DNA from: Candidatus Nomurabacteria bacterium
Lineage (GTDB): Bacteria > Patescibacteriota > WWE3 > UBA101185 > UBA10185
Direction: 5' to 3'
NCBI GenBank assembly: GCA_020631855.1
Contig: JACKGU010000002.1
Location: forward strand, 22,569-86,568
DNA length: 64,000 bases
Each line of letters begins with the position of its first letter. The first letter of the stretch is position 1. The notes under the pieces were generated by a model. The model saw only the letters and a list, made by a program, of their open reading frames with translations. It did not search any database and was not told the DNA's origin. Both the position numbers and the translations under genes were made by a program. Below, piece by piece: positions 20,684 through 43,650 of this stretch.

Positions 20684-20851
20684 TAGTACTTTTAGATTGT
20701 CTTATCAACTTCATTTTTCCGAATTTTTTTACTAAATTAATATTTTTTCATAGATATCACCTCGTTCCACAAACAGTTATAGGAAATATAACCTTGTAGT
20801 AATAGGTAGGACATAGCTTGAAAATATTATTTGTAATGCCATACTTACAAT

Positions 20852-23534: not shown

Positions 23535-23608
23535 GCGGGATTAGTTGAAAGGCTCAACGTCACCCTTCCAAGGTGAAGATACGGGTTCGATTCCCGTATC
23601 CCGCTCCA
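23535..23608 (+). tRNA. tRNA-Gly (anticodon TCC), CCA encoded
   Basis: Acceptor GCGGGAT/ATCCCGC, anticodon stem TCACC/GGTGA, loop CTTCCAA, T-loop TTCGATT. Confidence 0.85.
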
Positions 23609-25148
23609 TATCGGACTGCATTTGCAAAAATGCCCTTTTAATCCGATCTGTAGGGCTATTTTCAGGTTCGAGCCACTCATTTTTCCTAATTACGCTTTTT
23701 TCAGTCTCTTTGATATACACAAACGCGTTTTTGGCGTTGATTCGGACTATTCTATCTTTTAGCTCTAGGTTCGAGCCAAGTATCCTCAGAACCATCCTTT
23801 TTGCTTCTGTGTCGTAAGAATGGAAGATTTTGGTAACATTTGCTAAGAACGCCAACACCTCCTCCATGACCTCCGTCCAATTCGTAAGACCATCACCCGC
23901 AATGCTATCTTTAGTTTGTTTCTCCTCAACTAGTAATCGGCTTTTTTCCTTTTTATACTCATCGTCACTAATTAAGCCTTCTATCTTCATCCCGTAGAGG
24001 TTCTTTTTCTCGACTAGTATCGAATCTAAGCGTTTGGTTAATTTGCTCTTTTGTCCACGCTCAAACTCAAATTCCCGCTCATTTCTGCGCTTCAGGTTTT
24101 TTCTTACCCACGTTACAAATGTGGGTCTAATCTCTAGGCTACTAATGAAAGCGATAACTTGTTTTTCAACTTCGATTGCATTCAGATAAGGCTGACTACA
24201 TGGCCCCTTTTTCTTAACACATCTCGCATAAATAAAAGTCTGTGAGTTCCCGTTTTTATACTTCTTCGTTTTTCGATCGCATGTAATTGCAGATCCACAT
24301 TCTCCGCATTTGAGTGTCTTCATAAAATAAAAGTCATTCGTGAACTGGTGAATTTTGGCTCTGCCGTCAATGATATCCTGAACGCGATAGTATTCATCAA
24401 TGGTAACCATTGGTGTATGTTTGCCGTTAAAACGTTCTCCATTGTAATCAAATAGTCCAGCATAAAATACGTTCCTAAAAAACCTAAACGCTTCCGTTCT
24501 ACTGACTGGTTTTCCCGTCCTTTTGCTTTTCAACCCTAAGGCAGTAATTTTTTCTAGCGAACTTTCGACAGTCTCATTTCCTGTAAGCATAAATTCCCAC
24601 CAAGATCGGCATAAGTTAAATCTATCCGGATCAGGAAGAACTTCTTTTTGCCCCTTTGGTTTAATAGGGTCATTCAAATACCCCAAAGGAGCTGAGCCAG
24701 GTCGCCAGCCGTTTTGAACCTTTGTATTCATTCCTCTTTTGACATTATCGGAAAGGTCTTTGCTAAATTTAGTTGCCATGCCAAATTCGATAAAAAGGAA
24801 GGTAGAGTTGTTGCGATCGTAATCCATGGTAGGGGTGACGATCAACATGCCGTTATAGTCGACGTGATCAATGAGCGTACCACCTTCCTTAGCATTTCGG
24901 CAGAGTCGATCGGCTTTCCAACAGAGTATGTGTTTTACCTCTCCCTTGGAAACTCTTTCAACCATGGCTGTAAATTCTGGACGATGATCAGGGCGCTTAG
25001 CTGATTTACTTTCTTTATAGACTCCCAGAACCGCAAACCCCTTATCTTTGGCCAATTCTTTACATGTGCGTTCCTGATCATCAAGGGAGAGAATTTGTCG
25101 ATCTTTATCCTCGGAAGATTTTCTACAGTATATAAAACAAGTATTCAT
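23541..25148 (-). CDS. large serine recombinase (integrase)
   Basis: 535 aa; N-terminal resolvase domain with catalytic Ser (YCRKSSEDKDRQ), recombinase domain, zinc ribbon CGECG...C; last ~22 codons overlap tRNA-Gly antisense. Confidence 0.8.
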   Translation of the reverse strand: MNTCFIYCRKSSEDKDRQILSLDDQERTCKELAKDKGFAVLGVYKESKSAKRPDHRPEFTAMVERVSKGEVKHILCWKADRLCRNAKEGGTLIDHVDYNGMLIVTPTMDYDRNNSTFLFIEFGMATKFSKDLSDNVKRGMNTKVQNGWRPGSAPLGYLNDPIKPKGQKEVLPDPDRFNLCRSWWEFMLTGNETVESSLEKITALGLKSKRTGKPVSRTEAFRFFRNVFYAGLFDYNGERFNGKHTPMVTIDEYYRVQDIIDGRAKIHQFTNDFYFMKTLKCGECGSAITCDRKTKKYKNGNSQTFIYARCVKKKGPCSQPYLNAIEVEKQVIAFISSLEIRPTFVTWVRKNLKRRNEREFEFERGQKSKLTKRLDSILVEKKNLYGMKIEGLISDDEYKKEKSRLLVEEKQTKDSIAGDGLTNWTEVMEEVLAFLANVTKIFHSYDTEAKRMVLRILGSNLELKDRIVRINAKNAFVYIKETEKSVIRKNEWLEPENSPTDRIKRAFLQMQSDMERDTGIEPVSSPWKGDVEPFN

Positions 25149-26850: not shown

Positions 26851-28413
26851 ATGGATAAAACAACCCTCTCCTTCCAGACAATCTCCATGCTAATCAATTC
26901 AGGAGAGTCAAAAAAAGCTCTTGAGAGATTGGCTGAATTCGAGGAAAAAAACTCTGAAGACAAGAGGTTGATATTTTATAAACCAGGTTTTCTAGTTGAT
27001 ATAGGTAATGATCTCAGAGACGAAAAAATCATTAGAGAAGGTATTGATCTTGGTGAAGTGACATTATCAAAAACAAAGAACAACAGGACACAGGCCTACC
27101 TCCGCTACTGCCTGGCAAATGGGTACACATATTTGCATCAACTTACAGAGAGTATGGGTGGCATTGTAGACCGGACCATACCTCAAAGCGAACACCTTCT
27201 ACAAGCTAAACGGCACTTACTTCAGGCTACTGATTTTGAAATTGATGACCCGAGCCTGAAAGTACAATTATTAGTTAACTTGGGTAACAGTCTAGACACG
27301 TTCGGTAGAGGAATAGAGGCAATTCACGCTTATAACGAGGCTCTTCGTTTAAGTAAAAATTTCCCTATGGCAGTGGCAAATAGAGCCAAGGCTCTTCGTG
27401 CATTTGCCGATATCTCTGACAAGTATCGAGCTTCGATATATGTTACAGCTTATCAGGACATTAAGTCGGTTCTAGACGATCCAAAACTAGTACAAGTTGG
27501 TGGGCTTGAAGCAAAGAAAGCTTTCGAACGTGAACTTACTAATATTGAATCCCGCTTCCAGGACAAATCGTTACTCAAGAAAAATATCAAACACCCTCGC
27601 TATAAAACCGATGGGCTTACCAAGTTTGAAAAATACTATTTGGACTTTTGCAGTCAGGAAGGATTGTTTCTAAACTTCCACATTCACGACGGTCACTGCG
27701 AAGCAGCTATTGAGGATCCTGTCTTTATCAGATTAATCACAAAGTTGGACGATAACGATACGTTTTATTACTTTGCAAAACAGCTCAATCAGATTAAAGA
27801 AGATTATGCTGTAGCCAGGTTGAATCTGGTCCAATCACAATACAAACAAAAAGCCTTCGATAACATTAGCAAAAGAACCAGTTATGTATATGCTTTGGAC
27901 TACTCACAATTTAATCTCTATATCGGTTTGTTGAAATCAGCATTTAAAGACGCATTCAACATATTAGATAAAATCGCAGTGTTTATTAATGACTACTACA
28001 ACCTGGAACTCAAGGAGAATAACATTTATTTCATTACAGCTTCAATCTGGGAGGATAAAGGAGCAATTAGAAGAGAAATACTTAACTCAGAAAATATAAG
28101 TCTTTACGCCCTATATGATATTTACCGAGATTTTAAATCAAACAGGTGTCAAAAAATTAAGCAAATAAGAAACGCACTTACCCACAGGAGACTAGTTGTC
28201 TTCGATTCATTAATAACAAGTATTGATGATGATGCCGATAAACACAATATCGACTCGGATACTCTCCTTCAAGAAACAGTGAATCTTATGCGACTAACTA
28301 AGGCAGCAATTATTTACCTGATTAATTTTGTAAATATTGAGGAAGAAAAGAAGCACAAAGCAGGTGTCAAGCCAATTCTGAGTATGTACGCAGACACTTC
28401 ACAATTTCTATAG
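26851..28413 (+). CDS. TPR-repeat protein with C-terminal HEPN-like (R-x4-H) domain; candidate defence/abortive-infection protein
   Basis: 520 aa; N-terminal TPR-like helices (AIHAYNEALRLSKNFPMAVANRAKAL); C-terminal KQIRNALTHRRLVVF contains Rx4HxR HEPN signature. Confidence 0.45.
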   Translation: MDKTTLSFQTISMLINSGESKKALERLAEFEEKNSEDKRLIFYKPGFLVDIGNDLRDEKIIREGIDLGEVTLSKTKNNRTQAYLRYCLANGYTYLHQLTESMGGIVDRTIPQSEHLLQAKRHLLQATDFEIDDPSLKVQLLVNLGNSLDTFGRGIEAIHAYNEALRLSKNFPMAVANRAKALRAFADISDKYRASIYVTAYQDIKSVLDDPKLVQVGGLEAKKAFERELTNIESRFQDKSLLKKNIKHPRYKTDGLTKFEKYYLDFCSQEGLFLNFHIHDGHCEAAIEDPVFIRLITKLDDNDTFYYFAKQLNQIKEDYAVARLNLVQSQYKQKAFDNISKRTSYVYALDYSQFNLYIGLLKSAFKDAFNILDKIAVFINDYYNLELKENNIYFITASIWEDKGAIRREILNSENISLYALYDIYRDFKSNRCQKIKQIRNALTHRRLVVFDSLITSIDDDADKHNIDSDTLLQETVNLMRLTKAAIIYLINFVNIEEEKKHKAGVKPILSMYADTSQFL

Positions 28414-28612: not shown

Positions 28613-28843
28613 CTAGAACGGCAAGAGTTCGCAGGATTTAACGCCCAGGGCCTTAGATACTTTATATAGCGTGCGGATAGTAGGGTTTCTTTCTCCCCTT
28701 TCTATCATGCCCACATAGTTTCTATGCATGGCCAGTCTGGCGGCTAATTCTTCCTGGCTAATTCCTTTAGCTTTCCGGACTCTTTGCACCTTCTCTCCGA
28801 ATTTCATCAAAATGTGTTTGTGAGTAATAGGTTTGCCCATCAA
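28613..28843 (-). CDS. XRE-family helix-turn-helix transcriptional regulator
   Basis: 76 aa; KGISQEELAARLAMHRNYVGMIERGERNPTIRTLYKVSKALGV is a canonical Cro/CI-type HTH. Confidence 0.8.
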   Translation of the reverse strand: MMGKPITHKHILMKFGEKVQRVRKAKGISQEELAARLAMHRNYVGMIERGERNPTIRTLYKVSKALGVKSCELLPF

Positions 28844-28985: not shown

Positions 28986-29324
28986 ATGTGCGAAAAGCTG
29001 CTCATTTTCCAAAAAACATATGATTTACTTCTCTGGTTATACCCTGTAATTAACCGTATCCCTAAAAGCCACAGACTAGTATTAGGAAAAGAACTGGAAG
29101 AACTTGGTATAGCTTTGCTGGTCACTACGGTTAAAGCCAATAAAGTCCGTGGACAAGAAAGGACTTCTCTGCAACTTCAGATATCCGATGACCTTGACTC
29201 TATACGCATCCTTATCCGGCTCACAAAAGATTTAAGGCTTATGAGTATAAAACAGTATGCAATGGGTGCTGAAAAAATTAATGAAATAGGAAGGATGCTC
29301 AATTCATGGATGAAAGTGGTATAG
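28986..29324 (+). CDS. avd: DGR accessory variability determinant (Avd; four-helix-bundle / 23S rRNA IVS protein family)
   Basis: 112 aa; LLIFQKTYDLLLWLY...SLQLQISDDLDSIRILIRLTKDL...EKINEIGRMLNSWMK matches four-helix-bundle (TIGR02436/PF05635) pattern; located immediately 5' of TR and RT. Confidence 0.75.
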   Translation: MCEKLLIFQKTYDLLLWLYPVINRIPKSHRLVLGKELEELGIALLVTTVKANKVRGQERTSLQLQISDDLDSIRILIRLTKDLRLMSIKQYAMGAEKINEIGRMLNSWMKVV

Positions 29325-29357: not shown

Positions 29358-29476
29358 GTGTGTTCCTTCGCGGCGGGAATTGGAATAATGGTTCCAACGC
29401 GGGTGCGTTCACACTCAACCTGAATAACGATACGGGTAGCCAGAACAACAATATCGGCTTTCGCTGCGCCAGTGAT
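29358..29476 (+). repeat. DGR template repeat (TR)
   Basis: 119-nt near-identical copy of 31932-32050; carries A at 14 of the 15 positions where the two copies differ; AAC/AAT-rich. Confidence 0.85.
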
Positions 29477-29669
29477 GAACTTGCCAAGCACGTCTTGGTG
29501 TGCCGGATGAGTGATATGCGTTTAAGGATGCATATTCCGGATCTATATGATCACAAGGTTTTCTCCGTTTCCTGCCCATCGGTAGGGGAAAACATAATAC
29601 CTGTATCCCCGCGTCTTGTACGCAGCAGCGGCATGAGGCGCGGGGGAAATGGGTTAACTACCTCCGAGT

Positions 29670-30770
29670 ATGTTTGATAATATTTGCAACCTGGAACAAC
29701 TGGTTGGTGCGTACTATCGTGCCAGAAAGGGTAAGCGCGAGAAAACAAGAGTTTGTGAGTTTGATTTCACTCTTGAGAGTAATTTAATAAAGCTAAAATA
29801 CCTTCTGGAAACAGGAAAATATATCCCAGCTCCTTACGCTCACTTCACGATTTTTGATCCTAAGACAAGAAGCGTATCTGCGCCCGCGTTTCGAGACAGG
29901 GTATTACAACACTCACTAGTAAAGTCTGCCGAACCTTTGTTTGAAAAGAAATTTATTGTTGATTCTTATGCCTGCCGTGAAGGAAAAGGTACACACTTCG
30001 GAGCCAAACGGGTAAAGAAATTTTTAATGGCTGCCCGATGCAAATATGGCAAGCAACAGGACATTTACGTCCTTCAATGTGATATCCAAAAATACTTTCA
30101 GAGCATTGATTGGAACACACTCTTGATTATAGTGGCAAAGACAATCCATTGTCCTAAAACTCTCGATCTTATTAAAAAAATCGTAGAGAACCATGACTCA
30201 ACTAACAGAAAACTAATGCCGGCAAGTAAGGACAGCTGTCAATTAGATTTATTTTCGTCTCTTTCTCCCATTGAGGTACCACCGGTTTCCGTGGCGGAAA
30301 GAAAAGGGCTACCCATCGGCAACCTAACGAGTCAGTTATTTGCGAATGTCTATCTGAACGAGCTTGATCATTATGTCAAAGAAACGCTCCGCGAGAAATG
30401 GTATGCGCGATATATGGATGACTTCCTCGTTATCAGTAAAGACAAAAATCACCTGAAAGAAGTCAGGGAAGATATAAGAACTTTTCTTAACAAAAAACTG
30501 AAACTGCGTCTTCACCCCAGAAAAATCTCTATCAAAAATGTGAATGAGGGTGTCCCTTTTGTCGGCTACCGGATATTCTATGATCACAAACTAGTGAGAG
30601 GTGAAACACTCATCCGTTTACAGAGGAAGCACAGAAAGCGGCTAAAACTATTTCGGGAAGGGAAAATTACGGAAAATCAGATGCAAATGTCAGAAGCTTC
30701 AGTGCGCGGTCATCTGAAACACGCAGATGCACACGGCTTGTATTCTTTTATGACCAAGAATTCTGTTTGA
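29670..30770 (+). CDS. DGR reverse transcriptase
   Basis: 366 aa; RT motifs including LPIGNLTSQLFANVYL (DGR-specific IGxxxSQ variant of QGxxxSP) and YMDDF (YxDD catalytic box). Confidence 0.85.
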   Translation: MFDNICNLEQLVGAYYRARKGKREKTRVCEFDFTLESNLIKLKYLLETGKYIPAPYAHFTIFDPKTRSVSAPAFRDRVLQHSLVKSAEPLFEKKFIVDSYACREGKGTHFGAKRVKKFLMAARCKYGKQQDIYVLQCDIQKYFQSIDWNTLLIIVAKTIHCPKTLDLIKKIVENHDSTNRKLMPASKDSCQLDLFSSLSPIEVPPVSVAERKGLPIGNLTSQLFANVYLNELDHYVKETLREKWYARYMDDFLVISKDKNHLKEVREDIRTFLNKKLKLRLHPRKISIKNVNEGVPFVGYRIFYDHKLVRGETLIRLQRKHRKRLKLFREGKITENQMQMSEASVRGHLKHADAHGLYSFMTKNSV

Positions 30771-30838: not shown

Positions 30839-33800
30839 ATGCGTATAATACAGAGAATTAAACATTATCTGTGGGAGCCACGGTTTCATTTCAGCCGCTT
30901 TCAGTTTAATCTGGTAGCACTTGTTTTTATTGGTGTTGGTTTTGTTAGCGGCACTTACCTGGCGCTTTCCGAACTCTACCCAAAAGTTTTTGCTCTCAAT
31001 GATAGCGCCAAAGTTTGGACTTTTAATGCCGCCAGCTCCGGTGACTATACTACAAGCCAAACTGTCGTTGACAATAGTGGTGCTCATCCTACTGGGGGGC
31101 AAGTAGGGGCAAATGAACTTGCAAATCCTGCTTTTGCTTCTGATAACACCTCATGGAGTGTAGCGGCAGTCCCGCCATCTGGTTATGTGGAGGTTCCGGG
31201 TAATGCCACCTACGGAACCAGTAACTTCCTCGCAATGCAGTATGAAGCAAAATACGACTGTACTGCTACGCCTGACGGCGATGGTGATACTGCGGCTACG
31301 TGTTCGGCTCCTGCCGACTCAGGGTTGGGATTAGATTATCGTGATATCAGTGGTTTTTCTTCCAGCCGCGTTGTCTCTACAGCCAACGGCGCTCCGATTG
31401 TTCACATCACCCACACCCAGGCACTCACAGCTTGTCCTACGGGTTATCATCTGATTACTAATCCCGAATGGATGTCGATTACAAGAGATGCCGAAGCTCA
31501 AACTTCCAACTGGGCTAATGGAGTAGTCGGCAGCCTTGTGTCTGCCGGCGGCGGATTTAAACGCGGTAATGTAGGTCAGAGCGATAGCGTAAGTTATAAC
31601 GGCAATGATCCTGAATACGGTTCCGGCCGTGACAGCAAGGCCATGTTAACACTTTCTAACGGTGCTACGATCTGGGATTTATCCGGCAATGTTTGGGAAC
31701 ATGTAAAAATAAATTCTGGCGATACACTTATTCCTCAAAATCAACAGCCTACTTTAAGTATTGCTGGTGATGATGCCGCAGGAACAGGTGCCTGGGGAGA
31801 ATTCACCGAAATTTCCGGATACGGAATACTCTCGTATGACCAGATAAGACCTTCGGGTTCCTCATATAATGCAAATCACGGTGTGGGTCGCATATGGACC
31901 TACGGTGACGGTGAAACTGCCACCACCGATCGTGTGTTCCGTCGCGGCGGGTCTTGGTATAATGGTTCCTACGCGGGTGCGTTCACACTCGGCCTGTCTT
32001 ACGCTACGGGTAGCCAGTACCACGATGTCGGCTTTCGCTGCGCCAGTGATCCCGTAGGAATCTCTCAATCTTATTCATCTAGTTCCGGCGTAGCCGGCGG
32101 CGGCGGAAATTCGGTGGCTATAGGCTCTGTATCCGACGGGAAAATTTACCAGTCGGTAAATGTGGGTGATACTTCTACTTATGATTTTTCTGTTTATGTC
32201 TATAACAATACCTCCGGCAGTGAGGGTACTGTCGTTGACGGGAGCGTTGCCAGCCTATACTACAACGGATCCACAATCACTACCTCGTACGAAGCGGTGT
32301 CCGGCAACTGGTACAAGCTAACCGGAACCCTGACTGGTGCCAACGCTTCCCGCGAGTACGGTGTGTTAGTTAAAACCGGAAAAACCGTCAAGGTAGATGA
32401 CTTTACTCTCACAAAACAAGGCACTTATAGTGTCTATACCACGAGTGCTTACTCAAATGCTTTGGTAGCTACCTGGGACACCTTCTGCGAAGGCACGTTG
32501 TCCGGTTCCACCTGCACCGAAGATGCCACTCAGGGCGGTTATGGTGTTATTAAATATCAGATTTGCACGGATGACGGATCTACCTGCGAATCAGGCGGGT
32601 CATGGAAATACTGGGATGGGGCTGCCTGGCAAACAGCGTCCAATACAACTACGCATGTCAATACAAAAGTGCAACTTACCCAGACAGCCATGCAGGCGCT
32701 TCCCATTTTCTCCCAGAAGATATCCATTAAGGCGATCTTTACCTCCGGCGGAAGTGATGTCCCGTATCTTCCTCATGTTTCCATTGGTCTGACTACCGAT
32801 ACCACCCCACCCGACACAAATGCCTCTGCAGTCACTATGACCAGAAGCAATGGTGGCACAAGCGTATCCTCTAACGGCTGGACCAACAATCTCTCTCCAT
32901 ATTTTTCCTGGACAGCTGGAGCAGATAATAGTGGTGGAAGTGGCGTAAAAGGGTATTGTTTGTATTTAGGAACAGACTCAAATGGCAATCCAGCGACCAG
33001 CAAAGGACTCCTTGGGACAAGTCCTGTCTCAACAGCTGGAACAACCTGTCAGTTTATCGTTTCAGCAACATCGATTGATTTTGCTACCTCATCATATAAA
33101 GGAGGAACTTGGTTAACCACTTCAAGTGACCCTTATTATTTAAACATTAAGGTTGTAGATAATTCCGGTAATGTTTTTGGTGGAAGCTCAGAGCAATTCC
33201 AATTTCGATTTGACAATACTGCTCCAACCAATACGTCATACATTTCCTGTGCCTCTGGATCTTTTTCAAATGTGGCAGATATGAACTTTTCGTGGCCAAC
33301 TTCAGGGGGTGTTGCTTCCTCTGACACCAACGCTGGAGTTTTAGGTTGGCAATACCAGATCAACTCAACTGTTGGAACATGGCTGGGGACAACAACTGAG
33401 TCAAGCTTGGGAATCAATAATTACATACCAACCAGTGCTTCTTCCAGAACTCTTACCCAAGATCAAGATGGATCCTCGATTGTGTCTGGAAATAACATTG
33501 TGTACTTTAGGAGTGTAGACGCAGCAGGTAACACTTCAACTGACGCATCCATCAGAACCTGTAACCTCTCTTACGGTGGAGCTGCACCTGCTTTTGATGG
33601 CCTAGATGAAGTTACGGTTACGCCATCAACTTCTACCTCAAACTCATACGCTTTAAGCTGGCCGGCAGCAACGGCGACGTCGGGCCAATCAGTTGCACAT
33701 TATTATTACATGGTTAATACCTCACCTCCGTCGACATTGGCAACTTTGCAAAGTAATAGTGCTACATATATCGACAATGGCACTTCAACAACCGTTGCAG

Positions 33801-35473
33801 CTGCGGCATTATCGAATGTAAATAAGGGCAGTAATACGGTTTATGTTGTAGCGGTAGATGACGCGGATACTCCTAACTATTCTCCCTCCAACTATATAAG
33901 CGGAGCATTTACACTAAATTCTACAGATCCGGATAACGTGAGCGGCCTGGTGGCATCTGACTCTTCGATCAAGAGCCTGTCTCAGTGGAACGTAACCCTA
34001 ACCTGGGCAGCACCTACATACCAGGGTGCTGGGAATTTAACATATCTTATCTACCGTTCATCAGACGGAACCAGTTTCACTCAGGTTGGATCAACAACAG
34101 GTTTGTCTTACGTAGACAATACACCATCCTCCGCACTCTATTACTACAAGCTTTATACAAAGGATGGAGCTAATGCGACATCATCTGGTACAAATGCCGT
34201 TTCCATCACTCCTACCGGCAAATGGACAACTGCACCGTCTCTTGATTCCGGTCCAAGTGTTGGTAGTATTACCACTAAAAAAGCAACCATTGCCTGGACG
34301 ACCTCCAGATCCAGTGACTCTAAAGTGCAATACGGAACATCATCGGGAAGCTACGGAGATGTAGAGCCGAGCAACTCCTCCCAGGTCAGCTCTCATTCAA
34401 TTCAGTTAACAGGCCTTAATCCGGGAACAACTTACTATTACAAAGCTAAATGGACGGATGAAGACGGTAATACCGGTACCAGCGAAGAAAAGAATTTTAC
34501 CACGGCTGCTGCCCCCACTGTTAAAGATGTTGTTGCTAAAAATATCGGTCTTTCTTCGGCGATTATTCAATTTACTTCCAAGGATGCTTCTAAGGTGAAA
34601 ATATACTACGGCACGACGACCAGTTTTGGTGGGGCAAAAGAAATCTCAACGTCGACCTCTGAAACAACCTATACTGCTGAACTTACAGGTCTGTTGGACG
34701 GCACTAAATATTATTACAAAATCAACACTTTTGACAGCGACAACAGTGAATATGAAGGTACAGTTTTGGATTTCACCACTCTACCCCGTCCCAGAATAAG
34801 CAATGTCAGGATTCAGCAAGTGGCCAATACAGCTCAATCGACTGTTCTTGTTACCTGGATGACGAACACAGATGTTTCTTCCATTGTCACATACTATCCG
34901 GAGGAAAATACAGCTGATGCCCGAGATGAAGTTAATGTGGCTCTCACTAAAGGTGAACACCGGATGATTATCCGCGGGTTAGCACCGCAAACTAACTACA
35001 TTTTGGTAGTTAAGGGCAGGGATAAGATTGGCAACGAAGCAACTTCCGATACTCAACGAATTACTACTGCCACAGATACAAGACCTCCACAGATTTCGGA
35101 ACTCCATGTAGAAGGAGCCGCGATTCCGCCAACAGCCTCCACAGCTCAGGAATCTATGGCGCAGCTTATTGTTTCCTGGAATACAGACGAACCATCAACT
35201 TCACAGGTTGAATTCGGAGAAGGCACAGGCACTACGTACTCATCAAAGACTCAGGAAGATAGTAACCTGACGTATAATCACCTGGTTATTATTTCCGGCC
35301 TGACTCCGAGCAAGGTCTACCATGTACGAACTATCTCAAAAGATAAAGCCGGGAATACAGGAAACTCAATTGACACGGTAACCATAACTCCTAAAGCGAC
35401 TGAAAATGCTCTGAATCTTGTCATTACTAATTTACAGGAAGCATTTGGGTTTCTGGGAGGATTAACTAAATAA
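30839..35473 (+). CDS. DGR target (variable) protein: N-terminal TM anchor, FGE-sulfatase/C-type-lectin-fold domain carrying VR, long Ser/Thr-rich region with FN3-like repeats
   Basis: 1544 aa; TM at residues ~22-45; GNVWEHV and RGGSWYNG...GFRCASD FGE/CLec motifs; VR at 31932-32050; C-terminal repeated IAWTTSRSSDSKVQYG...TTYYYKAKW FN3-like modules. Confidence 0.8.
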   Translation: MRIIQRIKHYLWEPRFHFSRFQFNLVALVFIGVGFVSGTYLALSELYPKVFALNDSAKVWTFNAASSGDYTTSQTVVDNSGAHPTGGQVGANELANPAFASDNTSWSVAAVPPSGYVEVPGNATYGTSNFLAMQYEAKYDCTATPDGDGDTAATCSAPADSGLGLDYRDISGFSSSRVVSTANGAPIVHITHTQALTACPTGYHLITNPEWMSITRDAEAQTSNWANGVVGSLVSAGGGFKRGNVGQSDSVSYNGNDPEYGSGRDSKAMLTLSNGATIWDLSGNVWEHVKINSGDTLIPQNQQPTLSIAGDDAAGTGAWGEFTEISGYGILSYDQIRPSGSSYNANHGVGRIWTYGDGETATTDRVFRRGGSWYNGSYAGAFTLGLSYATGSQYHDVGFRCASDPVGISQSYSSSSGVAGGGGNSVAIGSVSDGKIYQSVNVGDTSTYDFSVYVYNNTSGSEGTVVDGSVASLYYNGSTITTSYEAVSGNWYKLTGTLTGANASREYGVLVKTGKTVKVDDFTLTKQGTYSVYTTSAYSNALVATWDTFCEGTLSGSTCTEDATQGGYGVIKYQICTDDGSTCESGGSWKYWDGAAWQTASNTTTHVNTKVQLTQTAMQALPIFSQKISIKAIFTSGGSDVPYLPHVSIGLTTDTTPPDTNASAVTMTRSNGGTSVSSNGWTNNLSPYFSWTAGADNSGGSGVKGYCLYLGTDSNGNPATSKGLLGTSPVSTAGTTCQFIVSATSIDFATSSYKGGTWLTTSSDPYYLNIKVVDNSGNVFGGSSEQFQFRFDNTAPTNTSYISCASGSFSNVADMNFSWPTSGGVASSDTNAGVLGWQYQINSTVGTWLGTTTESSLGINNYIPTSASSRTLTQDQDGSSIVSGNNIVYFRSVDAAGNTSTDASIRTCNLSYGGAAPAFDGLDEVTVTPSTSTSNSYALSWPAATATSGQSVAHYYYMVNTSPPSTLATLQSNSATYIDNGTSTTVAAAALSNVNKGSNTVYVVAVDDADTPNYSPSNYISGAFTLNSTDPDNVSGLVASDSSIKSLSQWNVTLTWAAPTYQGAGNLTYLIYRSSDGTSFTQVGSTTGLSYVDNTPSSALYYYKLYTKDGANATSSGTNAVSITPTGKWTTAPSLDSGPSVGSITTKKATIAWTTSRSSDSKVQYGTSSGSYGDVEPSNSSQVSSHSIQLTGLNPGTTYYYKAKWTDEDGNTGTSEEKNFTTAAAPTVKDVVAKNIGLSSAIIQFTSKDASKVKIYYGTTTSFGGAKEISTSTSETTYTAELTGLLDGTKYYYKINTFDSDNSEYEGTVLDFTTLPRPRISNVRIQQVANTAQSTVLVTWMTNTDVSSIVTYYPEENTADARDEVNVALTKGEHRMIIRGLAPQTNYILVVKGRDKIGNEATSDTQRITTATDTRPPQISELHVEGAAIPPTASTAQESMAQLIVSWNTDEPSTSQVEFGEGTGTTYSSKTQEDSNLTYNHLVIISGLTPSKVYHVRTISKDKAGNTGNSIDTVTITPKATENALNLVITNLQEAFGFLGGLTK
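31932..32050 (+). repeat. DGR variable repeat (VR) inside target gene
   Basis: 15 mismatches to TR, 14 at TR adenines; identical 3' end GGCTTTCGCTGCGCCAGTGAT (IMH-like). Confidence 0.85.
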
Positions 35474-35476
35474 TCT

Positions 35477-36277
35477 ATGAGTGAATACTTATTTCAAGTC
35501 CAGCAGGTTTCAAAGTCGTTCCATGTGGCTACTGCTGACGTGCCGGTTTTGAAAAACATTACCTTTGACATAAAGAGGGAAGACTTTGTGGTTATTTTTG
35601 GACCGTCAGGGTGTGGAAAATCCACATTGCTTCACACCATGCTGGGTTTGGAAGAACCCAGTAGCGGCAAAGTTTTGTTTTTGGATAAAAATCTTTACAA
35701 CGGAGTCACTGAAGATGAGCGCTCGGACTTTCGGAAGCAACATGCAGGGATGGTGTATCAGCAACCGAACTGGATCCGTTCCTTGACCGTGCAGGAAAAT
35801 GTAGCTTTCCCTTTGCAACTGCTTGGCGAAGACAAGAGCGTTGCCCTCGAGAAAGCGAAACAGGCTCTGGAAATGGTAGAGATGCTTGAGTGGTCTGCAT
35901 ACATACCCACGGAGTTATCAAGCGGTCAGCAACAACGTGTAGCTTTGGCACGGGCACTGGTTACCAATCCTGAAGTTATTATAGCCGATGAACCGACGGG
36001 AAACCTGGACTATGAATCAGGACAGGAACTCATGCAGCTATTGACCTCATTAAATAAGAAAGCCAGGAAAACTATCGTTATGGTGACACACGACCTGGAA
36101 TACTTGAGATTTGCAAAGACTGCAGTGAGAATGTTTAACGGCCAGATTGTCGGAGTATACGACGAGAAAGATCAGAATAAACTAATGAATGAAATCAAAG
36201 GTAAACGCGGAAACGGTGACTTTGAACATCAGGCAAAACCGGAAAAATTAGAGCCATCAAAAAACATACAACCATGA
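35477..36277 (+). CDS. ABC transporter ATP-binding protein (MacB/LolD-like)
   Basis: 266 aa; Walker A GPSGCGKST, signature LSSGQQQRVALARAL, Walker B IIADEPTGNLD; starts 4 nt after DGR target stop. Confidence 0.8.
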   Translation: MSEYLFQVQQVSKSFHVATADVPVLKNITFDIKREDFVVIFGPSGCGKSTLLHTMLGLEEPSSGKVLFLDKNLYNGVTEDERSDFRKQHAGMVYQQPNWIRSLTVQENVAFPLQLLGEDKSVALEKAKQALEMVEMLEWSAYIPTELSSGQQQRVALARALVTNPEVIIADEPTGNLDYESGQELMQLLTSLNKKARKTIVMVTHDLEYLRFAKTAVRMFNGQIVGVYDEKDQNKLMNEIKGKRGNGDFEHQAKPEKLEPSKNIQP

Positions 36278-38304
36278 TCAAACTTAATATAAAAGGCAGA
36301 ATCAGCACAATGTTCCACACCATGTATCAGATGGGGACTTTTGTATTGCTTTTAATTTTGTATATGACCGGTAAGGGCATCTCCCGCCTGGCTAATTGGA
36401 GATTTTTCCCAAAAATAATTAAAAATAGGTTATCAGGTCCATTGGCACTTTTTTATTCCAAAGCGGTTAAGATTCTGGATTTTAAACGGACCGGAACTAT
36501 CTCACGTATTGATTTGATTGAACTTTCAATACGAAATATGAAAGCAAAAAAGACAAGAACTATTGTAACCATAGGCGGAATGATGATAGGTATAGGTACG
36601 ATTGTTTTCCTGGTTTCCATCGGTTACGGGTTACAACAACTCGTAATCACCAGAGTAGCCAGGCTTGAAGAAATGAGACAAGCTGATATAACTCCACAAG
36701 CTGGCGGCAAGGTCAGAATTGATGACAAGACTCTCAATGACTTTAAAGATATTACTGCTGTCGAAATGTCTCTGCCGCTCATAGCTGTTGTCGGTCGGGT
36801 AAATTACCAAAACTCTGTATCTGATATGGCGGTTTACGGTGTTACCACAGACTATCTCAAACAATCAGCCATCAAACCTATTCAGGGAAAAATATTTGAC
36901 AGCAACGAATTAACAGCAGAGCTTCCGGATACATCTGGAAAAGTGGCTGGTGTTTATACTGAAAGTAAGTCCGGTGAACCCGGAGAAAAAATACAGGATG
37001 TCGAATACACAATTGATCAAACAAGTTGGATCCGTGTAAGGGAAGATGCATCTACGAGTGCAAAAGTGTTGGGGTATACCAAACGTGTGGAAGGAAGTTC
37101 TAACGGTGAGGAGGTTTGGGGTGGTAAATATACTTCGGATAACGGAGCGGGTACAGCGGGTGAGTCAGAAACAGGCTCTACAATCGGGAAATGGATAAAA
37201 GCTCCTGTACTCCTCTGGAAGGAGCAAACATGTGACACGGAAACGGAAGGTGACTGCGAAGATGGTAAATATATGGTTCTTAGGGACGAGGACAGCAAAC
37301 AAGCGCAGAAAGAAGGATACTTTGCTGAAATTGGCCTGACAATTAGTGGAGCCAGTATCAAATATACTCAAGTTTTAGGCGAAACTACTGATGTTTCTTC
37401 CGGAAGTGCTCAACCTGTTACTAATACTGCCACCTCTCTTGATTGGGTTGAGATTGCTTCAGAAGCAGGAGTTATTCAGACATCTGATATCAAAACAGTA
37501 GAGTTATCGGACAGTGCCAAGAAACAAGCGGTTGTTAACCGGGCAATGCTGAAAATTCTCGGCATTAATGAAAATGAGGCTGTTGGTAAGAAATTTACGG
37601 CTTCATTTGTCGTTGTCGGTGAACTACTGGCAGATCCGAAAGAAAAAATTGAGTCAGCACCGACTGAATATACCATCGTGGGAGTTACTCCTGAAGAAAA
37701 GACCCCGGTTTTCTATGTTCCCTTCATGGACTTAAGATCTTTGGGAATCAGTAACTATTCTCAAGTCAAGGTTGTAGTTAAAGACCAAACGGATCTTTCA
37801 AAAACCAGAAAGCAGATTGAAGCAATGGGGTATATTACCAGATCGGTAGCTGATACAGTTGCACAAATTAATTCGCTATTTGCGACTGCCAGAACACTTT
37901 TAGCTCTTTTAGGAATGGTGGCTCTGGCTGTAGCGGCTCTGGGGATGTTTAACACGTTAACCGTGTCATTACTTGAAAGAACCAGAGAGGTGGGACTCAT
38001 GAAAGCAATGGGGATGAAATCATCGGAAGTGCAGGAGCTATTCCTTACAGAATCGATGATAATGGGATTCTTTGGCGGAGTCCTGGGGATATTTGTCGGC
38101 TTCCTATTCGGTAAATTAGCAGGACTCTTCCTATCATTCTTCTCAATAGTTAGAGGAGTCGGGTTTGTAGACATCTCCTATTTGCCGTTCCCCTTTGTGC
38201 TTGTCGTAGTGTTTTTATCTCTCTTAGTCGGCATTGCTACCGGAATATATCCAGCCAGGCGTGCAACAAAGATTTCCGCTCTCAACGCTCTTCGGTACGA
38301 ATAA
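36274..38304 (+). CDS. ABC transporter permease, MacB/FtsX family with large extracytoplasmic domain
   Basis: 676 aa; TM1, about 420-aa periplasmic region, three C-terminal TM helices (FtsX-like); start overlaps ATPase stop (ATGA). Confidence 0.7.
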   Translation: MIKLNIKGRISTMFHTMYQMGTFVLLLILYMTGKGISRLANWRFFPKIIKNRLSGPLALFYSKAVKILDFKRTGTISRIDLIELSIRNMKAKKTRTIVTIGGMMIGIGTIVFLVSIGYGLQQLVITRVARLEEMRQADITPQAGGKVRIDDKTLNDFKDITAVEMSLPLIAVVGRVNYQNSVSDMAVYGVTTDYLKQSAIKPIQGKIFDSNELTAELPDTSGKVAGVYTESKSGEPGEKIQDVEYTIDQTSWIRVREDASTSAKVLGYTKRVEGSSNGEEVWGGKYTSDNGAGTAGESETGSTIGKWIKAPVLLWKEQTCDTETEGDCEDGKYMVLRDEDSKQAQKEGYFAEIGLTISGASIKYTQVLGETTDVSSGSAQPVTNTATSLDWVEIASEAGVIQTSDIKTVELSDSAKKQAVVNRAMLKILGINENEAVGKKFTASFVVVGELLADPKEKIESAPTEYTIVGVTPEEKTPVFYVPFMDLRSLGISNYSQVKVVVKDQTDLSKTRKQIEAMGYITRSVADTVAQINSLFATARTLLALLGMVALAVAALGMFNTLTVSLLERTREVGLMKAMGMKSSEVQELFLTESMIMGFFGGVLGIFVGFLFGKLAGLFLSFFSIVRGVGFVDISYLPFPFVLVVVFLSLLVGIATGIYPARRATKISALNALRYE

Positions 38305-38378: not shown

Positions 38379-38690
38379 ATGAGAAAAACCCCAGCGATAG
38401 AATTCTATGAATTTAGTCCGATCGAAGGTATTAGTGATGAAGCCTTACTTAAAGCTGAGAAGAAAGCCCAATATAGCTTTTTCAGGAAGCAAAAAGGGTT
38501 CATCAGGTGTGAAATACTCAAATCTGACAAAAACTGGATTAGTATCAGTTATTGGAATGACGTAGAAGAAGCGAGAAAAGCCTTGGATGAATTCCTAAAT
38601 CATTCCAGCTGTCTGCCTTTTGTACAGATGGTCTCCCCTAGTAGTGAGCGGAGACTATACATGCATCGAGAGTTATCTTCTAAAGTTTAG
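38379..38690 (+). CDS. hypothetical protein
   Basis: 103 aa ORF. Confidence 0.35.
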   Translation: MRKTPAIEFYEFSPIEGISDEALLKAEKKAQYSFFRKQKGFIRCEILKSDKNWISISYWNDVEEARKALDEFLNHSSCLPFVQMVSPSSERRLYMHRELSSKV

Positions 38691-38875
38691 TTTTAAATAT
38701 ATCCCTTCAAATCACCACAAAATAACACAAAGTTTATTGAGAACTATTTTTCCCTTTACTAGACTGTAGATATTAGGAAGTAAAGCCTAACGAAACAATC
38801 GGGGCTGTGACTTTTGAATATACGCATACTCGCGTGTGTTTAGAAGTTACAGCCCTTTTTAGTTACTAAGAAAAA

Positions 38876-39274
38876 ATGAAAACACTTAATCAGAACATCC
38901 ACCCGGCAACTCTCCTTCCCATCGGAGTGATTACTGAAACCACTCAGGGCTCAGCAGTTGATAGTTATCTCTCTGATCGACCAGCTTACGACTCTGGTCT
39001 TATCGACATCGCCATCGGGAACCTCGGCGATCAAACATCCACCAAAGTGAAGATTGAAGAATCAGATGCTTCGGACTTCTCTTCAGGAGTAACTGTGGCT
39101 AAAGGCGGAGAGGAAGTTACCGTTGCGGCAGACACGGGCTACAAGATGCAGATTGAACGAAAGAAAAGATATTTCAGGGCAGTTGTAACTATCACTGCTG
39201 GGTCAACCCCATCTGCTGAAGTATATATCGGAGCATTACTGTGGGACGCGCAAAGACCGTTCCCGATTACTTAA
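38876..39274 (+). CDS. hypothetical phage structural-module protein
   Basis: 132 aa, first gene of same-strand structural block. Confidence 0.4.
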   Translation: MKTLNQNIHPATLLPIGVITETTQGSAVDSYLSDRPAYDSGLIDIAIGNLGDQTSTKVKIEESDASDFSSGVTVAKGGEEVTVAADTGYKMQIERKKRYFRAVVTITAGSTPSAEVYIGALLWDAQRPFPIT

Positions 39275-39282
39275 GGAAAACT

Positions 39283-39609
39283 ATGGAACCAGATCAAAAC
39301 AAACAACCAAAAGCACCAACACAGGATCCAAATCCTGCAGACAAAAAACCTGAAGCTGGTGCATCAGCTCAACCCAATGAAGCTCAAATGTGGGACAAGG
39401 TTGACTCTCTATTCACAGTCGCCCGTAACGCATTTTTTCAGGGCAATTCCACCTTTGTGGAGGTGCTGGATAGCTTAATCGCTACTCTGCAGGACATGAA
39501 GGAGAACGAGGTACGCCCTCTTGGTGGGTTAACTCAGAAAAACAAAATGAAGTTAGAAGACCAGGAACAGCCGGAAAAAGAAGAAGAACCGGCTAATCCG
39601 AACTTATAA
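39283..39609 (+). CDS. hypothetical phage protein (start adjusted to ATG with AAGGA SD)
   Basis: 108 aa; acidic, Pro-rich N-terminus. Confidence 0.4.
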   Translation: MEPDQNKQPKAPTQDPNPADKKPEAGASAQPNEAQMWDKVDSLFTVARNAFFQGNSTFVEVLDSLIATLQDMKENEVRPLGGLTQKNKMKLEDQEQPEKEEEPANPNL

Positions 39610-39613
39610 AACT

Positions 39614-39868
39614 ATGGCAAGCAGTATTGACGAAAAACTTGATCGAGGCCGAGCAGTTTGGGAAATGACTCAAACCGAAGGCTGGCAGATTATAAAAAGC
39701 CTAATCGACCAAGAGCTAGAGATTGAAAGTAAGGATTTATTGGACTGTCCCATAGAGGAAGACCTTGAACATAAACAAATGATCAAGGTCTACCGAAAAG
39801 TCTTGAGTATGGTCGACAGCGTTATTAAAGAGCGAGACGAAACTGCTCAGGATTTACGAAAGGAATGA
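39614..39868 (+). CDS. hypothetical phage protein
   Basis: 84 aa. Confidence 0.35.
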   Translation: MASSIDEKLDRGRAVWEMTQTEGWQIIKSLIDQELEIESKDLLDCPIEEDLEHKQMIKVYRKVLSMVDSVIKERDETAQDLRKE

Positions 39869-39872
39869 ATAT

Positions 39873-40757
39873 ATGGACGAAGAACAACTGAAACAAAAAG
39901 AACAAGAAGAATTACGAGCCCTACTCGATTCACCAGACGAGGAGGATTCTTCTGGTGAAGATAAAAAGAATAAGGATGTCACTCCACCTGCAGACAATCC
40001 CGATGGCAAAGAAACGAAACCGGAAGCCGGCAAAGATGACAAGCCAAACGAAGAAGGCTCTGAGGACGAAAAGAATAAAGACTCTAAAGATAAGGACAAA
40101 GATAAAGATAAAGACAGCAAAGATCGCTGGAACGGCAAAAGCCGTGAAGAGGTAATTAAAGAATACGAAACTTTGGAGAGTCGTGTCGATGCCTTAGAAA
40201 ATAAAGGTCCTGACGAAAAAGACCAATCGGAAGATGGCAAGACCAAAGACAAAGATGAAGAAAACTTAAATCTTCCTTCAGCAGATGAGCTTCAGAAGAT
40301 GACTCCTTCAGACTTTGCCAAATGGGTTATCTCTCGCATTGATGATGGAGTCAAAAAGACTATCGAAACACAGGAAAAGATCCGTGAGTCAGTTCGCAAA
40401 GAAATTGCAGAAGCAAAGAAAGAACATCCTCTACAGGATCCCGACTACCGCAAGATGGTGCAAACCATTATGGATGCAGCCAGTGCTAAAGGCACGACCG
40501 TCACTCTAAAAGAAGCGTGTGTTCAAGTCGATGCTTTCCTCGGCAAGCATAAGGAAAAAGATGAAGCCGAGAATAACGATGGATCTGAAGAATTATCAGA
40601 TGAAGAAAAGAGCCGGCTCAAAAAAGCCAAAGCTCAAGTTGAGAGTGGAGCGGGCGCTCCGACTCAGCCCGACGGCTCGGATGCCGAAACAAAACGCATC
40701 CAGAAAGCCCTCGCCGGAAGCGGGTCAAAAAGCTCCTTAGGAGGGTTAGGAATCTAA
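39873..40757 (+). CDS. putative capsid scaffolding protein
   Basis: 294 aa, highly charged K/D/E-rich with KDKDKDKD run and predicted coiled coils; immediately upstream of capsid-like gene. Confidence 0.5.
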   Translation: MDEEQLKQKEQEELRALLDSPDEEDSSGEDKKNKDVTPPADNPDGKETKPEAGKDDKPNEEGSEDEKNKDSKDKDKDKDKDSKDRWNGKSREEVIKEYETLESRVDALENKGPDEKDQSEDGKTKDKDEENLNLPSADELQKMTPSDFAKWVISRIDDGVKKTIETQEKIRESVRKEIAEAKKEHPLQDPDYRKMVQTIMDAASAKGTTVTLKEACVQVDAFLGKHKEKDEAENNDGSEELSDEEKSRLKKAKAQVESGAGAPTQPDGSDAETKRIQKALAGSGSKSSLGGLGI

Positions 40758-40796
40758 CTCCCTATGTTATTAAAAGAAGGGAGGTGAAAAAAATAT

Positions 40797-41966
40797 ATGC
40801 CAGCATCAGCAACAGGAATCAGAGGTTCAGGTAATTTAGGGGCAACCCAAAAGTATGACGTCGCGGACGTTGTATCGCTATTGGATGTCAACCGATATCC
40901 ATTGATGGCGATACTAACAAACGCTGGTAAAGATCCAGCAACCGGCGAGGGCGAAGCACTCAAAAAGAAAGAATCCACCGACCCAGAATTCAAATGGTTT
41001 GAAGATGAGTTTGGAAAGCGACAGCTAACAGGCTCAAGCACTGTCGATCCGGATGGCGGGAACTTAACTGTCACAGGGCAATCACAGTATCTTCAAGTCG
41101 GTGACATCATCTTGGTGTCTTCACAGAAATGGGTCTTTCAGGTAACCGCAATCGTAGACGCAAACACTGTAACAGTTGGTCCCGAACTCGGTGGAGCAAC
41201 AGGCTCGGCTGCATCAGCAGTCGGAGACGTCTGGCTCATTGGTAATGCCAATGAGGAAGGTGCAGGTCTGCGAGATATCAAATCGACCACCATTGCCGAA
41301 GTGTCCAACTATTGTCAGATCTTCAGAACTCCAGTCGGTATCACAGAAACTGCCCGAAATACTCAAGGATGGGTGAAAGAAAATGACTTTGACTATCAGA
41401 GGCGCAAAAAAGGTATTGAACACTATGTCGATATCGAACGCACATTTATCTTTGGTAAAAAAGGCATTCTTACTTCTGGAACTCACCCCAAGAGGTTCAC
41501 AAGCGGAATTCTAGGAAGGATTGCTACTTACGCCACTGCCAACGTTGACACCGAGTCTGAGTTTGACTCATGGCTCGAAAGTCTCTTTGCACACGGCAAC
41601 ACTGAAAAATATCTCTTTGCTTCAGCTTCGGTCGTTTCGATGATCAATGGCTGGGCAAAAGGAAAACTCCAAGTAGTCAACCCGACCAAGGCCTACGGAC
41701 TCAGAATCGTTACTTACGACTCTCCACACGGCACACTGCACATCATCAAGCATCCGCTCTTAATCGGAACAACCTACGGAAACTACGCCGTTGGGTTGGA
41801 CATGGAAGCTTTGACATACCGCTATCTGACAAATCGTGACACCAAGCTTATGACTAATCGTCAAAACCCTGGTGAAGATAGTCAGGTCGATGAGTACCTA
41901 ACCGAATGTGGACTGCAAATGGAGCAAGAGCAACGCCACGCCATTATGAGTATCGGCGCTCTTTAA
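40797..41966 (+). CDS. putative major capsid protein (HK97-fold-like)
   Basis: 389 aa; strong GGAGGTG SD; position after scaffold; overall resemblance to lambda gpE-like coat proteins (judged from memory). Confidence 0.45.
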   Translation: MPASATGIRGSGNLGATQKYDVADVVSLLDVNRYPLMAILTNAGKDPATGEGEALKKKESTDPEFKWFEDEFGKRQLTGSSTVDPDGGNLTVTGQSQYLQVGDIILVSSQKWVFQVTAIVDANTVTVGPELGGATGSAASAVGDVWLIGNANEEGAGLRDIKSTTIAEVSNYCQIFRTPVGITETARNTQGWVKENDFDYQRRKKGIEHYVDIERTFIFGKKGILTSGTHPKRFTSGILGRIATYATANVDTESEFDSWLESLFAHGNTEKYLFASASVVSMINGWAKGKLQVVNPTKAYGLRIVTYDSPHGTLHIIKHPLLIGTTYGNYAVGLDMEALTYRYLTNRDTKLMTNRQNPGEDSQVDEYLTECGLQMEQEQRHAIMSIGAL

Positions 41967-42127
41967 ACCTAAGCATTACTGAAACCTATGAATAAAAAAG
42001 CAACGCAACGAAAGTCACTACACACTTTCTTACTCAGTGTAGTCGCCTAGGAAGGGGTGAGCGTTATCACCCCTTCAACCCAATCTGGGGTTGTTAATCA
42101 GACAAAAAAGAAAGCGAGGTGAAAAAT

Positions 42128-42736: not shown

Positions 42737-42748
42737 AAGTAAAGATCT

Positions 42749-43045: not shown

Positions 43046-43049
43046 ATCT

Positions 43050-43637: not shown

Positions 43638-43650
43638 GGAGGTGAAAACT

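Follow-up and report, generated by a model that had tools for sequence, protein, structure and literature searches.

Can a diversity-generating retroelement (DGR) diversify a protein whose reading frame runs on for 1140 residues beyond the variable repeat (VR)? The question is raised by a 64,000-nt stretch of DNA from a Candidatus Nomurabacteria bacterium (GCA_020631855.1, contig JACKGU010000002.1, positions 22,569 to 86,568; hereafter the window, whose own coordinates are used below), in which the VR of a DGR lies 24-26% along the gene for a 1544-residue target protein. Published surveys hold that VRs lie at the C-terminus so that the homing elements are not constrained by coding (PMC8144416, section 8), and internal VRs force the initiation of mutagenic homing (IMH) site to overlap coding sequence (PMC5758913, section 11). 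The long open reading frame (ORF) was found to be a genuine single gene that is conserved in relatives and is no assembly artefact. Its product is, in our fairly confident judgement, a membrane-anchored giant surface protein of a Patescibacteria bacterium of the Microgenomates type, the ligand-binding head of which is hypervaried by the adjacent DGR.

The target gene and the positions on which the argument depends are as follows.

30839..35473, + strand: target gene, 1544 aa, single ORF (open for 1544 codons; identical public protein; 20 intact collinear orthologous ORFs)
30905..30973, + strand: N-terminal transmembrane (TM) anchor, aa 23-45 (sole hydrophobic 19-mer with Kyte-Doolittle value > 1.6; conserved PRFHFSRFQFNL motif before it)
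31932..32050, + strand: VR, aa 365-404 (repeat of the template repeat; alleles differ here only)

An earlier note on this DNA, made from the sequence alone, had placed the VR at residues ~365-404, downstream of a GNVWEHV motif, in a frame continuing for some 1140 residues. These coordinates hold: the peptide quoted there, RVFRRGGSWYNGSYAGAFTLGLSYATGSQYHDVGFRCASD, is aa 365-404 of the protein, GNVWEHV occupies aa 283-289, and all 1544 codons are open. The single N-terminal TM helix described there was likewise recovered, as one hydrophobic segment and as a helix at aa 20-43 in the AlphaFold2 (AF2) model. The PRFHFSRFQFNL anchor motif is also conserved in proteins that carry the same C-terminal stalk (see below) behind non-DGR heads. 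The classical DGR layout, with the VR at the extreme C-terminus, is not seen in the target, where the VR is aa 365-404 of 1544.

A complete DGR upstream of the target

A complete DGR lies upstream of the target gene, with the following components.

28986..29324, + strand: Avd accessory protein, 112 aa (Pfam bAvd PF22296, E 8.1e-23)
29358..29476, + strand: template repeat (TR), 119 nt (direct repeat of the VR, 87% identity)
29502..29543, + strand: two-tier stem-loop 3' of the TR, CCGGA..ATATGC-loop-GCATAT..TCCGG (inspection of TR 3' flanks in 22 loci)
29670..30770, + strand: DGR reverse transcriptase (RT), 366 aa (Pfam RVT_1, E 6e-22)

The gene order at the locus is Avd, TR, RT, target, ATP-binding cassette (ABC) ATPase and MacB/FtsX permease, and the RT starts 193 nt beyond the end of the TR. 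The RT translation includes LPIGNLTSQLFANVYL and YMDDF; its orthologues in related cassettes are 47-71% identical, and an Avd upstream of the RT is conserved in about 25 related loci. The features by which a DGR is recognised were all found, namely an RVT_1 RT beside a TR, an Avd, an adenine-biased TR/VR pair, and natural variation confined to the VR.

The TR, which encodes ...NWNNGSNAGAFTLNLNNDTGSQNNNIGFRCASD, and the VR form the only long direct repeat in the region (29358-29476 and 31932-32050). Fourteen of the 15 mismatches between them fall at TR adenines, the remaining one being a T>G near the 5' edge, and in the mutagenised span 26 of the 27 adenines are at codon position 1 or 2. TR/VR pairs that differ only or predominantly at adenines are found in about 21 related loci, the VR being always at aa ~340-435 of a long protein. 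In L016 (TR 4992-5111, VR 10140-10259), the codon for the conserved Trp of the VR (RGGxW) is TGA in both repeats; there, a mutation of the TR has made a stop-capable, adenine-mutable codon within the target.

By inspection of the 22 loci, the stem-loop 3' of the TR recurs with compensatory changes (AGCATG..CATGCT, GGTATAT..ATATACC and GGTTCCTAT..ATAGAACC), and it is presumed to be part of the spacer of the DGR RNA. A scan of the window against Rfam returned four tRNAs alone and no DGR RNA family.

The long reading frame as a single gene

The identical 1544-residue protein occurs on three contigs in NCBI/Logan (MCB9823903.1 and two more accessions), the longest of which is 629,590 bp, and the deposited proteins are annotated as 'fibronectin type III domain-containing protein' or 'FGE'. 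Several orthologues fall into clusters whose full-length members come from more than one assembly. Species-representative genomes, when scanned, yielded 79 loci, 25 of them with complete head and stalk. In 21 of these 25 a single frame matches aa 1-1544 collinearly, and in 19 of the 21 (20 if the near-duplicate L008 is counted) the ORF, 1507-1636 aa long, is unbroken. The synteny of the cassette is kept in about 25 loci. The intact orthologous ORFs and the public full-length copies therefore indicate that the fusion is genuine and conserved.

The obvious objection is that the real locus consists of two genes, a ~400-aa classical target ending in FRCASD and a ~1130-aa fibronectin type III (FN3) protein, which a lost stop codon or an indel has fused artificially. 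Homology searches at first sight agree with it, for they gave split pieces only: homologues of aa 1-442 are mostly proteins of 380-490 aa that end at the VR with FRCASD, and those of aa 405-1135 are separate FN3 proteins of 1050-1175 aa, often on the same contigs. The word-indexed protein search that listed only such fragments and split pieces, however, had been run on a collection that also holds full-length proteins of 1500-1546 aa, the window's included; conclusions drawn from its hit list alone would be wrong, because the full-length proteins are absent from that list.

The DNA at the junction is at odds with two genes. In the split relatives L004, L005 and L006 the frame reading GFRCASDPVAISQS... 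continues without a break from the VR into the 'second' gene, and it is the upstream part of the head that is in another frame than the stalk. Each split is a 1-2 nt indel, or a stop, within the VR relative to the locus's own TR; L004, L005 and L006 each have a 1-nt indel there. The called starts of the 'second genes' are internal TTG or GTG codons without a signal sequence. Moreover, 20 of the 25 complete loci are intact, and the protein found on three contigs has a sister allele that is also of 1544 aa. The two-gene hypothesis, which had come from the protein searches, was dropped after the junction DNA of L004-L006 and the intact genomic ORFs had been seen, and we regard it as scarcely credible. 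The earlier note had named a stop or frameshift just after the VR among the findings that would refute its proposal and had called for comparison with homologous loci; the frameshift is ruled against by the intact loci, the identical public protein and the open junction frame, and the comparison gave conserved collinear ORFs in relatives.

Lesions of the VR in relatives

In the broken relatives the lesion is almost always an indel of 1-2 nt within the 120-nt VR as compared with the locus's own TR, beside A-mutated positions. Lesions localised to the VR affect five of the 25 species-representative loci and three other assemblies. The broken VRs are located as follows.

L013 (= L005), 7782-7898
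L025, 8324-8441
L050, 4524-4644
L067, 10137-10257
L004, 3445-3559
L006, 7989-8109
L087, ~10200

On such loci gene callers report a ~390-aa 'classical' target and a ~1130-aa FN3 protein. The VR indels could be off alleles generated by the RT, or assembly noise at a hypervariable site. In view of the split gene calls, catalogues of DGR targets probably undercount internal VRs and misreport them as classical C-terminal ones.

Activity of the DGR

The other member of the window protein's 90% cluster (P0242; the window protein is P0241) comes from an independent assembly and is also 1544 aa long. The two proteins differ at 11 of 1544 residues, all of them at aa 368-396 and none elsewhere, and 10 of the 11 are at codons that contain adenines in the TR. 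Because the differences between the sister assemblies are all inside the VR, the DGR is active on the full-length gene. In the L007 cluster, six full-length alleles have six different VRs, and VR-enriched differences are seen within five other clusters.

Alternatively, the DGR might be a relic, the similarity of TR and VR being historical and the head being now the fixed lectin domain of an ordinary surface protein. Decay of this kind is evident in some relatives: in L027 mismatches occur at every one of the four bases, together with internal stops, and L019 and L034 are without a detectable DGR. The window, in contrast, has intact RT, Avd and TR, with mismatches almost exclusively at adenines, and both its own pair of alleles and the six of the L007 cluster vary as an active system would make them. 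A relic is accordingly considered very improbable for this locus.

The head and the adjoining domain

The following domains were assigned to the N-terminal third of the protein.

31151..32053, + strand: variable-protein domain of the C-type lectin (CLec)/formylglycine-generating enzyme (FGE) type, aa ~105-405 (AF2 confidence score, pLDDT, mostly > 90; Foldseek; profile search)
32111..32419, + strand: carbohydrate-binding module (CBM)-like beta-sandwich, aa ~425-527 (AF2 pLDDT ~85-94; Foldseek CBM16/22/6/27, E ~1e-4)

The AF2 model of aa 1-540 (95 sequences, mean pLDDT 84.5) consists of the TM helix at 20-43, a disordered segment at 47-100, the CLec domain at ~105-405 and a beta-sandwich at ~425-527. 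When the head was compared with the PDB by Foldseek, DGR variable proteins came first, with TaqVP (5vf4) at E 7e-9 and TvpA and Mtd further down. A family profile searched against the PDB matched TaqVP (8e-9), SUMF2 (5e-6), PorK/GldK (1e-5) and FGE (9e-4), and many homologues of the head carry a precomputed PF03781 match. Pfam on the head itself gave no DUF1566 match and only a weak Fib_succ_major (E 0.038).

The fold of the head was set by modelling, because Pfam gave no FGE-sulfatase match. According to the model, the VR closes a CLec/FGE-type fold at aa ~105-405, in keeping with the earlier note, which had read the VR as the end of an FGE-sulfatase/CLec-fold domain: the domain models confidently, and TaqVP, TvpA and Mtd are among its top matches. 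Of the Pfam and AlphaFold annotation proposed there, the fold and the fn3 domains were obtained, while the FGE-sulfatase HMM found nothing.

Candidate recognition elements within the coding linker

Since the VR is internal, the DNA elements of the recipient site cannot be intergenic. Two candidates were found at and after the VR end.

32030..32057, + strand: IMH-like GC-rich end of the VR (GGCTTTCGCTGCGCCAGTGAT) and invariant CCCGTAG past the TR/VR homology (DNA conservation, 23 loci)
32085..32097, + strand: GC hairpin/cruciform CCGGC-GTA-GCCGG in the coding linker, 34 nt after the VR end

Hardly any DNA variation, even at synonymous sites, is seen among the 23 loci in the final 21 nt of the VR or in the 7 nt that follow (CCCGTAG, the point at which TR and VR part). 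The conservation of synonymous codons reaches its gene-wide peak at aa 400-417, with 0.92 against a mean of 0.53 (sd 0.07). A perfect hairpin with a stem of 5-8 bp and a loop of 3-4 nt is present at +34/+36 from the VR in 16 of the 23 loci, as compared with 0.078 per locus from dinucleotide shuffles, and the stems are of five compensatory types (GGCCGC/GCGGCC, GGTCGC/GCGACC, CCGGC/GCCGG, CCGGA/TCCGG and CTGGCC/GGCCAG). In the window it encodes part of the low-confidence Ser/Gly/Ala linker between the CLec and CBM-like domains.

The Bordetella and Legionella DGR systems suggest, by analogy, the GC-rich VR end, CCCGTAG and the hairpin, all contained in linker codons, as candidate recognition elements for retrohoming. 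A terminator was considered for the hairpin and rejected because no T-run follows it.

The stalk and transporter module

Beyond the CBM-like domain, the target gene and the two genes after it comprise the following.

32423..35398, + strand: stalk of about nine immunoglobulin (Ig)/FN3-like beta-sandwiches, aa ~529-1520 (AF2; Foldseek; Pfam)
35408..35443, + strand: C-terminal helix, aa 1524-1535, NALNLVITNLQEAFGFLGG (AF2 helix; nearly invariant in 83 stalk homologues)
35477..36277, + strand: ABC transporter ATPase, 266 aa (Pfam ABC_tran, E 9e-35; begins 3 nt past the target stop codon)
36274..38304, + strand: MacB/FtsX-type permease, 676 aa (MacB_PCD E 9e-18, FtsX E 1e-17; start overlaps the ATPase stop)

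The AF2 model of aa 405-1544 (83 sequences, mean pLDDT 85) is an all-beta string of about ten sandwiches, the CBM-like one included, with a terminal helix at aa 1524-1535. Foldseek matched the stalk to multi-Ig/FN3 chains (filaments of the MyBP-C/titin type, contactin, gp130 and the GhpA base). At aa 1134-1519 Pfam gave four FN3 stretches of the Pur_ac_phosph_N type (E 1e-22) and fn3 (E 5e-9). The 'at least four FN3-like modules' of the earlier note are thereby accounted for in both Pfam and the structural comparison. A phmmer search of the whole protein against the PDB gave marginal FN3 matches only.

The stalk (aa ~600-1544) is found with other N-terminal parts in 50-odd further loci. Among these proteins are a short version of ~1055 aa with a signal peptide and versions of 1400-3200 aa; the PRFHFSRFQFNL-TM anchor is shared by some. 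In 33 of 51 other loci the stalk gene has an ABC ATPase and a MacB_PCD/FtsX permease within 600 nt downstream, and the target has both behind it in every head-bearing cassette with room for them. The pair has the make-up of a MacB-type (type VII) ABC transporter, with a separate ATPase and a permease that bears a MacB periplasmic core and FtsX domains. Judged from these comparisons, stalk and transporter constitute a widespread, conserved module of Patescibacteria with interchangeable heads. One of the alternatives offered by the earlier note, a DGR target fused to a fibre or stalk module, is borne out by the occurrence of this stalk behind other heads in many Patescibacteria.

Head-less stalk genes (~1055-1090 aa) with ABC/FtsX were observed at L041 5585-9319 and L053 6047-9378, and also in L044, L049 and L066. 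A divergent Avd/RT lies directly upstream of these head-less stalks, and its VR is in a separate small DUF1566-like target of the classical C-terminal-VR kind; a VR within head-less stalk genes that have an adjacent Avd/RT was looked for and is absent. The neighbourhood of L041 contains a TrwB-like coupling protein, a relaxase-like gene and DUF2958.

A third architecture, ~600 aa long, consists of an N-terminal extension, CLec/VR, the CBM-like domain and a stop, as in L001 333-2171 (P0003, GCA_053526315.1) and L003 10001-11824 (P0002). Its VR is ~125 aa from the C-terminus, and its linker has CCCGTAG and a CCGGC-NNN-GCCGG hairpin. The gene order in L001 is target-Avd-RT; in L003 the gene comes after type IV pilus genes, with no DGR within the locus. 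Elsewhere the homologous CLec module follows a prepilin or LamG domain and bears its VR at the C-terminus in the classical manner. In an exhaustive search of representatives of 50%-identity clusters, about 37 of the 150 best matches read on through the VR into further domains. Across these homologues, the internal-VR layout is a family trait and not a one-off.

Genomic context and the phage question

The window is cellular DNA, with four tRNAs, ProRS, thioredoxin reductase and glycosyltransferases, and the names of homologues point to Patescibacteria. The cassette lies between a serine recombinase (23541-25148, beside tRNA-Gly) and a block of phage-like genes, and the GC content is 0.40-0.47 in the recombinase and phage-like regions as compared with ~0.36 in the flanks. 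The phage-like block is composed as follows.

38379-56032: phage-like block
40797-41966: SU10 major capsid
43886-45577: amidase
45583-46287: SU10 adaptor
47742-49076: tail-fibre-like
50288-54958: 1556-aa LPD38 protein
54965-56032: M23 peptidase

Such surroundings raise the possibility that the target is a receptor-binding protein or fibre of a (pro)phage, a virion component serving host recognition as Mtd does in the Bordetella phage. The SU10-type capsid, adaptor, tail-fibre-like, amidase and LPD38 genes at 38.4-56 kb and the recombinase at 23.5 kb are in favour of it; so is the fact that the closest relatives, L007 and L008, keep the cassette collinear with the same capsid gene (major capsid protein 94% identical), and two relatives, L086 and L087, are IMG/VR viral contigs. 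Against it, the target is anchored by an N-terminal TM segment, and its translation is coupled to that of the ABC ATPase and MacB/FtsX permease. Its sole match in a PHROG search is the VR segment itself (phrog_2889, of unknown function), with no tail-fibre family, and the block has a tail-fibre-like gene of its own at 47742-49076. The structural block begins only downstream of the target, which has the RT on one side and the ABC transporter on the other. In L006 and L009 the same cassette has conjugation genes as neighbours, in L017 it has ordinary ones, and the stalk-ABC-FtsX trio is common in settings that have no phage genes. No terminase or portal was recognised in the phage-like block, and no prophage att repeats were found in a search around tRNA-Gly and the serine recombinase; homology to L008/L087 begins at window ~25950 and excludes the recombinase.

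A virion fibre is therefore judged improbable. Because of the TM anchor, the transporter operon, the lack of virion-family homology and the separate tail-fibre-like gene, the product is more likely to be displayed on the cell. The earlier note had spoken of a cell- or virion-surface adhesin; the cell-surface half of this stands, and the virion half is disfavoured by the anchor, the ABC/FtsX operon, the PHROG result and the conjugative and chromosomal contexts. Its placing of the lectin at the membrane-proximal end is drawn from sequence order only and would be one of two possible orientations, the other having the head distal.

Several other features of the neighbourhood may be recorded. The stretch 23535-25148, with the large serine recombinase, abuts tRNA-Gly. 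Directly upstream of Avd are genes for an LA2681-type HEPN protein (E 4e-33; 26851-28413, + strand) and a small Xre-like helix-turn-helix (HTH) protein (28613-28843, - strand); the pair is conserved with L007/L008, other genes take its place in L086, and it may serve the element in defence or regulation. L013 has an M23 homologue upstream of its cassette. The 3' end of tRNA-Leu (CGAGTCCCTCCTCGCCCACCA, 20515-20547) is repeated at 20663-20695, 148 nt downstream, with 85% identity, and could mark an old integration scar. Finally, a 105-nt direct repeat (6926-7030 and 14443-14547, 79% identity) has its copies 7.5 kb apart.

Interpretation

The favoured reading, that of a membrane-anchored surface protein with a DGR-diversified head, suggests the following mechanism. 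The TR RNA would be reverse-transcribed with adenine mutagenesis, and the cDNA would replace codons ~368-397. At the cell surface the target protein would serve as an adhesin or receptor that varies, and the MacB-type transporter may assemble, release or mechanically actuate it. The cassette would be accessory cargo of mobile elements, beside phage-like genes here and conjugation genes elsewhere.

Several points weigh against this reading or parts of it. The window cassette is collinear with phage structural genes, which gives a phage-related function some probability, if a low one. The role of the ABC/FtsX pair is read from gene order alone. Pfam FGE-sulfatase (PF03781) has no match on aa 1-442 even at E <= 10. 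As to the recognition elements, the hairpin is absent or imperfect in seven of the 23 loci; these loci are phylogenetically related, so a binomial P value treats them as more independent than they are; and the hairpin lies in a GC-rich linker coding for Gly/Ala/Arg, for which dinucleotide shuffles control partly.

A more far-reaching possibility, which we consider unlikely but put forward tentatively, is that the head is the hypervariable tip of a hitherto undescribed surface apparatus of Patescibacteria borne by mobile elements, in which a ~40-nm Ig/FN3 stalk is assembled or driven by the MacB-type transporter. The transporter might then pull out the conserved N-terminal anchor, which would leave the lectin head at the distal end. 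Indels and stops that the RT introduces into the VR might act as a switch turning the whole 1140-residue stalk on or off, which the internal position of the VR permits.

The earlier note's description of a new layout is not supported or goes too far. Internal VRs had been recorded before as rare exceptions (PMC5758913, section 11), the proteins have been deposited, and the ~37 of 150 cluster representatives above continue past the VR. The locus is a known DGR mechanism and fold in a rare, clade-conserved layout, and it is not unprecedented.

The significance of the target's family is that it provides a conserved and demonstrably active counter-example to the C-terminal-VR rule of the surveys (PMC8144416, section 8; PMC5758913, section 11). 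Its putative linker-encoded recognition elements offer a natural system in which to ask what the IMH and the hairpin require. The family ties DGR hypervariation to a widespread module of giant stalk and MacB-type transporter in episymbiotic ultra-small bacteria, and this module, which phage-like and conjugative elements carry, is a candidate for what determines attachment between cells.

Comparison with known systems

TvpA of Treponema denticola and TaqVP of Thermus aquaticus have, like the target, an FGE-sulfatase-like CLec fold in which the VR forms the last strands and loops of the domain; in all three the VR is AAY-rich and ends in a motif of the G-F-R-C type. The two proteins are, however, only ~280-380 aa long with the VR at the extreme C-terminus, whereas the target has 1140 residues beyond the VR and candidate recognition elements in coding sequence.

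With the Mtd/Brt/Avd system of phage BPP-1 the locus shares Avd, TR, RT, adenine mutagenesis, a GC-rich IMH at the VR 3' end and a downstream GC-rich inverted repeat (PMC5758913), and the window cassette also adjoins phage genes. In BPP-1, Mtd is the tail-fibre tip with a C-terminal VR, the cis elements are intergenic and the order is target-avd-TR-brt. In the window, by contrast, the order is avd-TR-RT-target, the VR is internal, and the membrane-anchored product is linked to a transporter.

LdtA of Legionella pneumophila resembles the target in that it is anchored at the surface of the cell and is encoded, as a DGR target, on a mobile element (an integrative and conjugative element), and some relatives of the cassette are among conjugation genes. 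It differs in being a small lipoprotein with an exposed C-terminal VR, without stalk or dedicated ABC transporter. The pilin-like and LamG-CLec targets of Patescibacteria (P0033 and P0011) have a homologous CLec/VR module with 50-67% identity; their N-terminus is a prepilin or LamG domain, their VR is at the very C-terminus, and they have no stalk.

The nearest precedents for the layout are the internal-VR targets of Wu et al. 2018, which comprise the Ig1 and Ig2 classes, one CLec2 and one triple-VR CLec1 (PMC5758913, section 11). As in the target, the VR is not C-terminal and the IMH therefore overlaps coding sequence (PMC5758913). Those targets are mostly non-CLec phage proteins or single cases, whereas the present one, with demonstrably conserved cis elements in its linker, belongs to a conserved CLec family represented in at least 20 species-level genomes.

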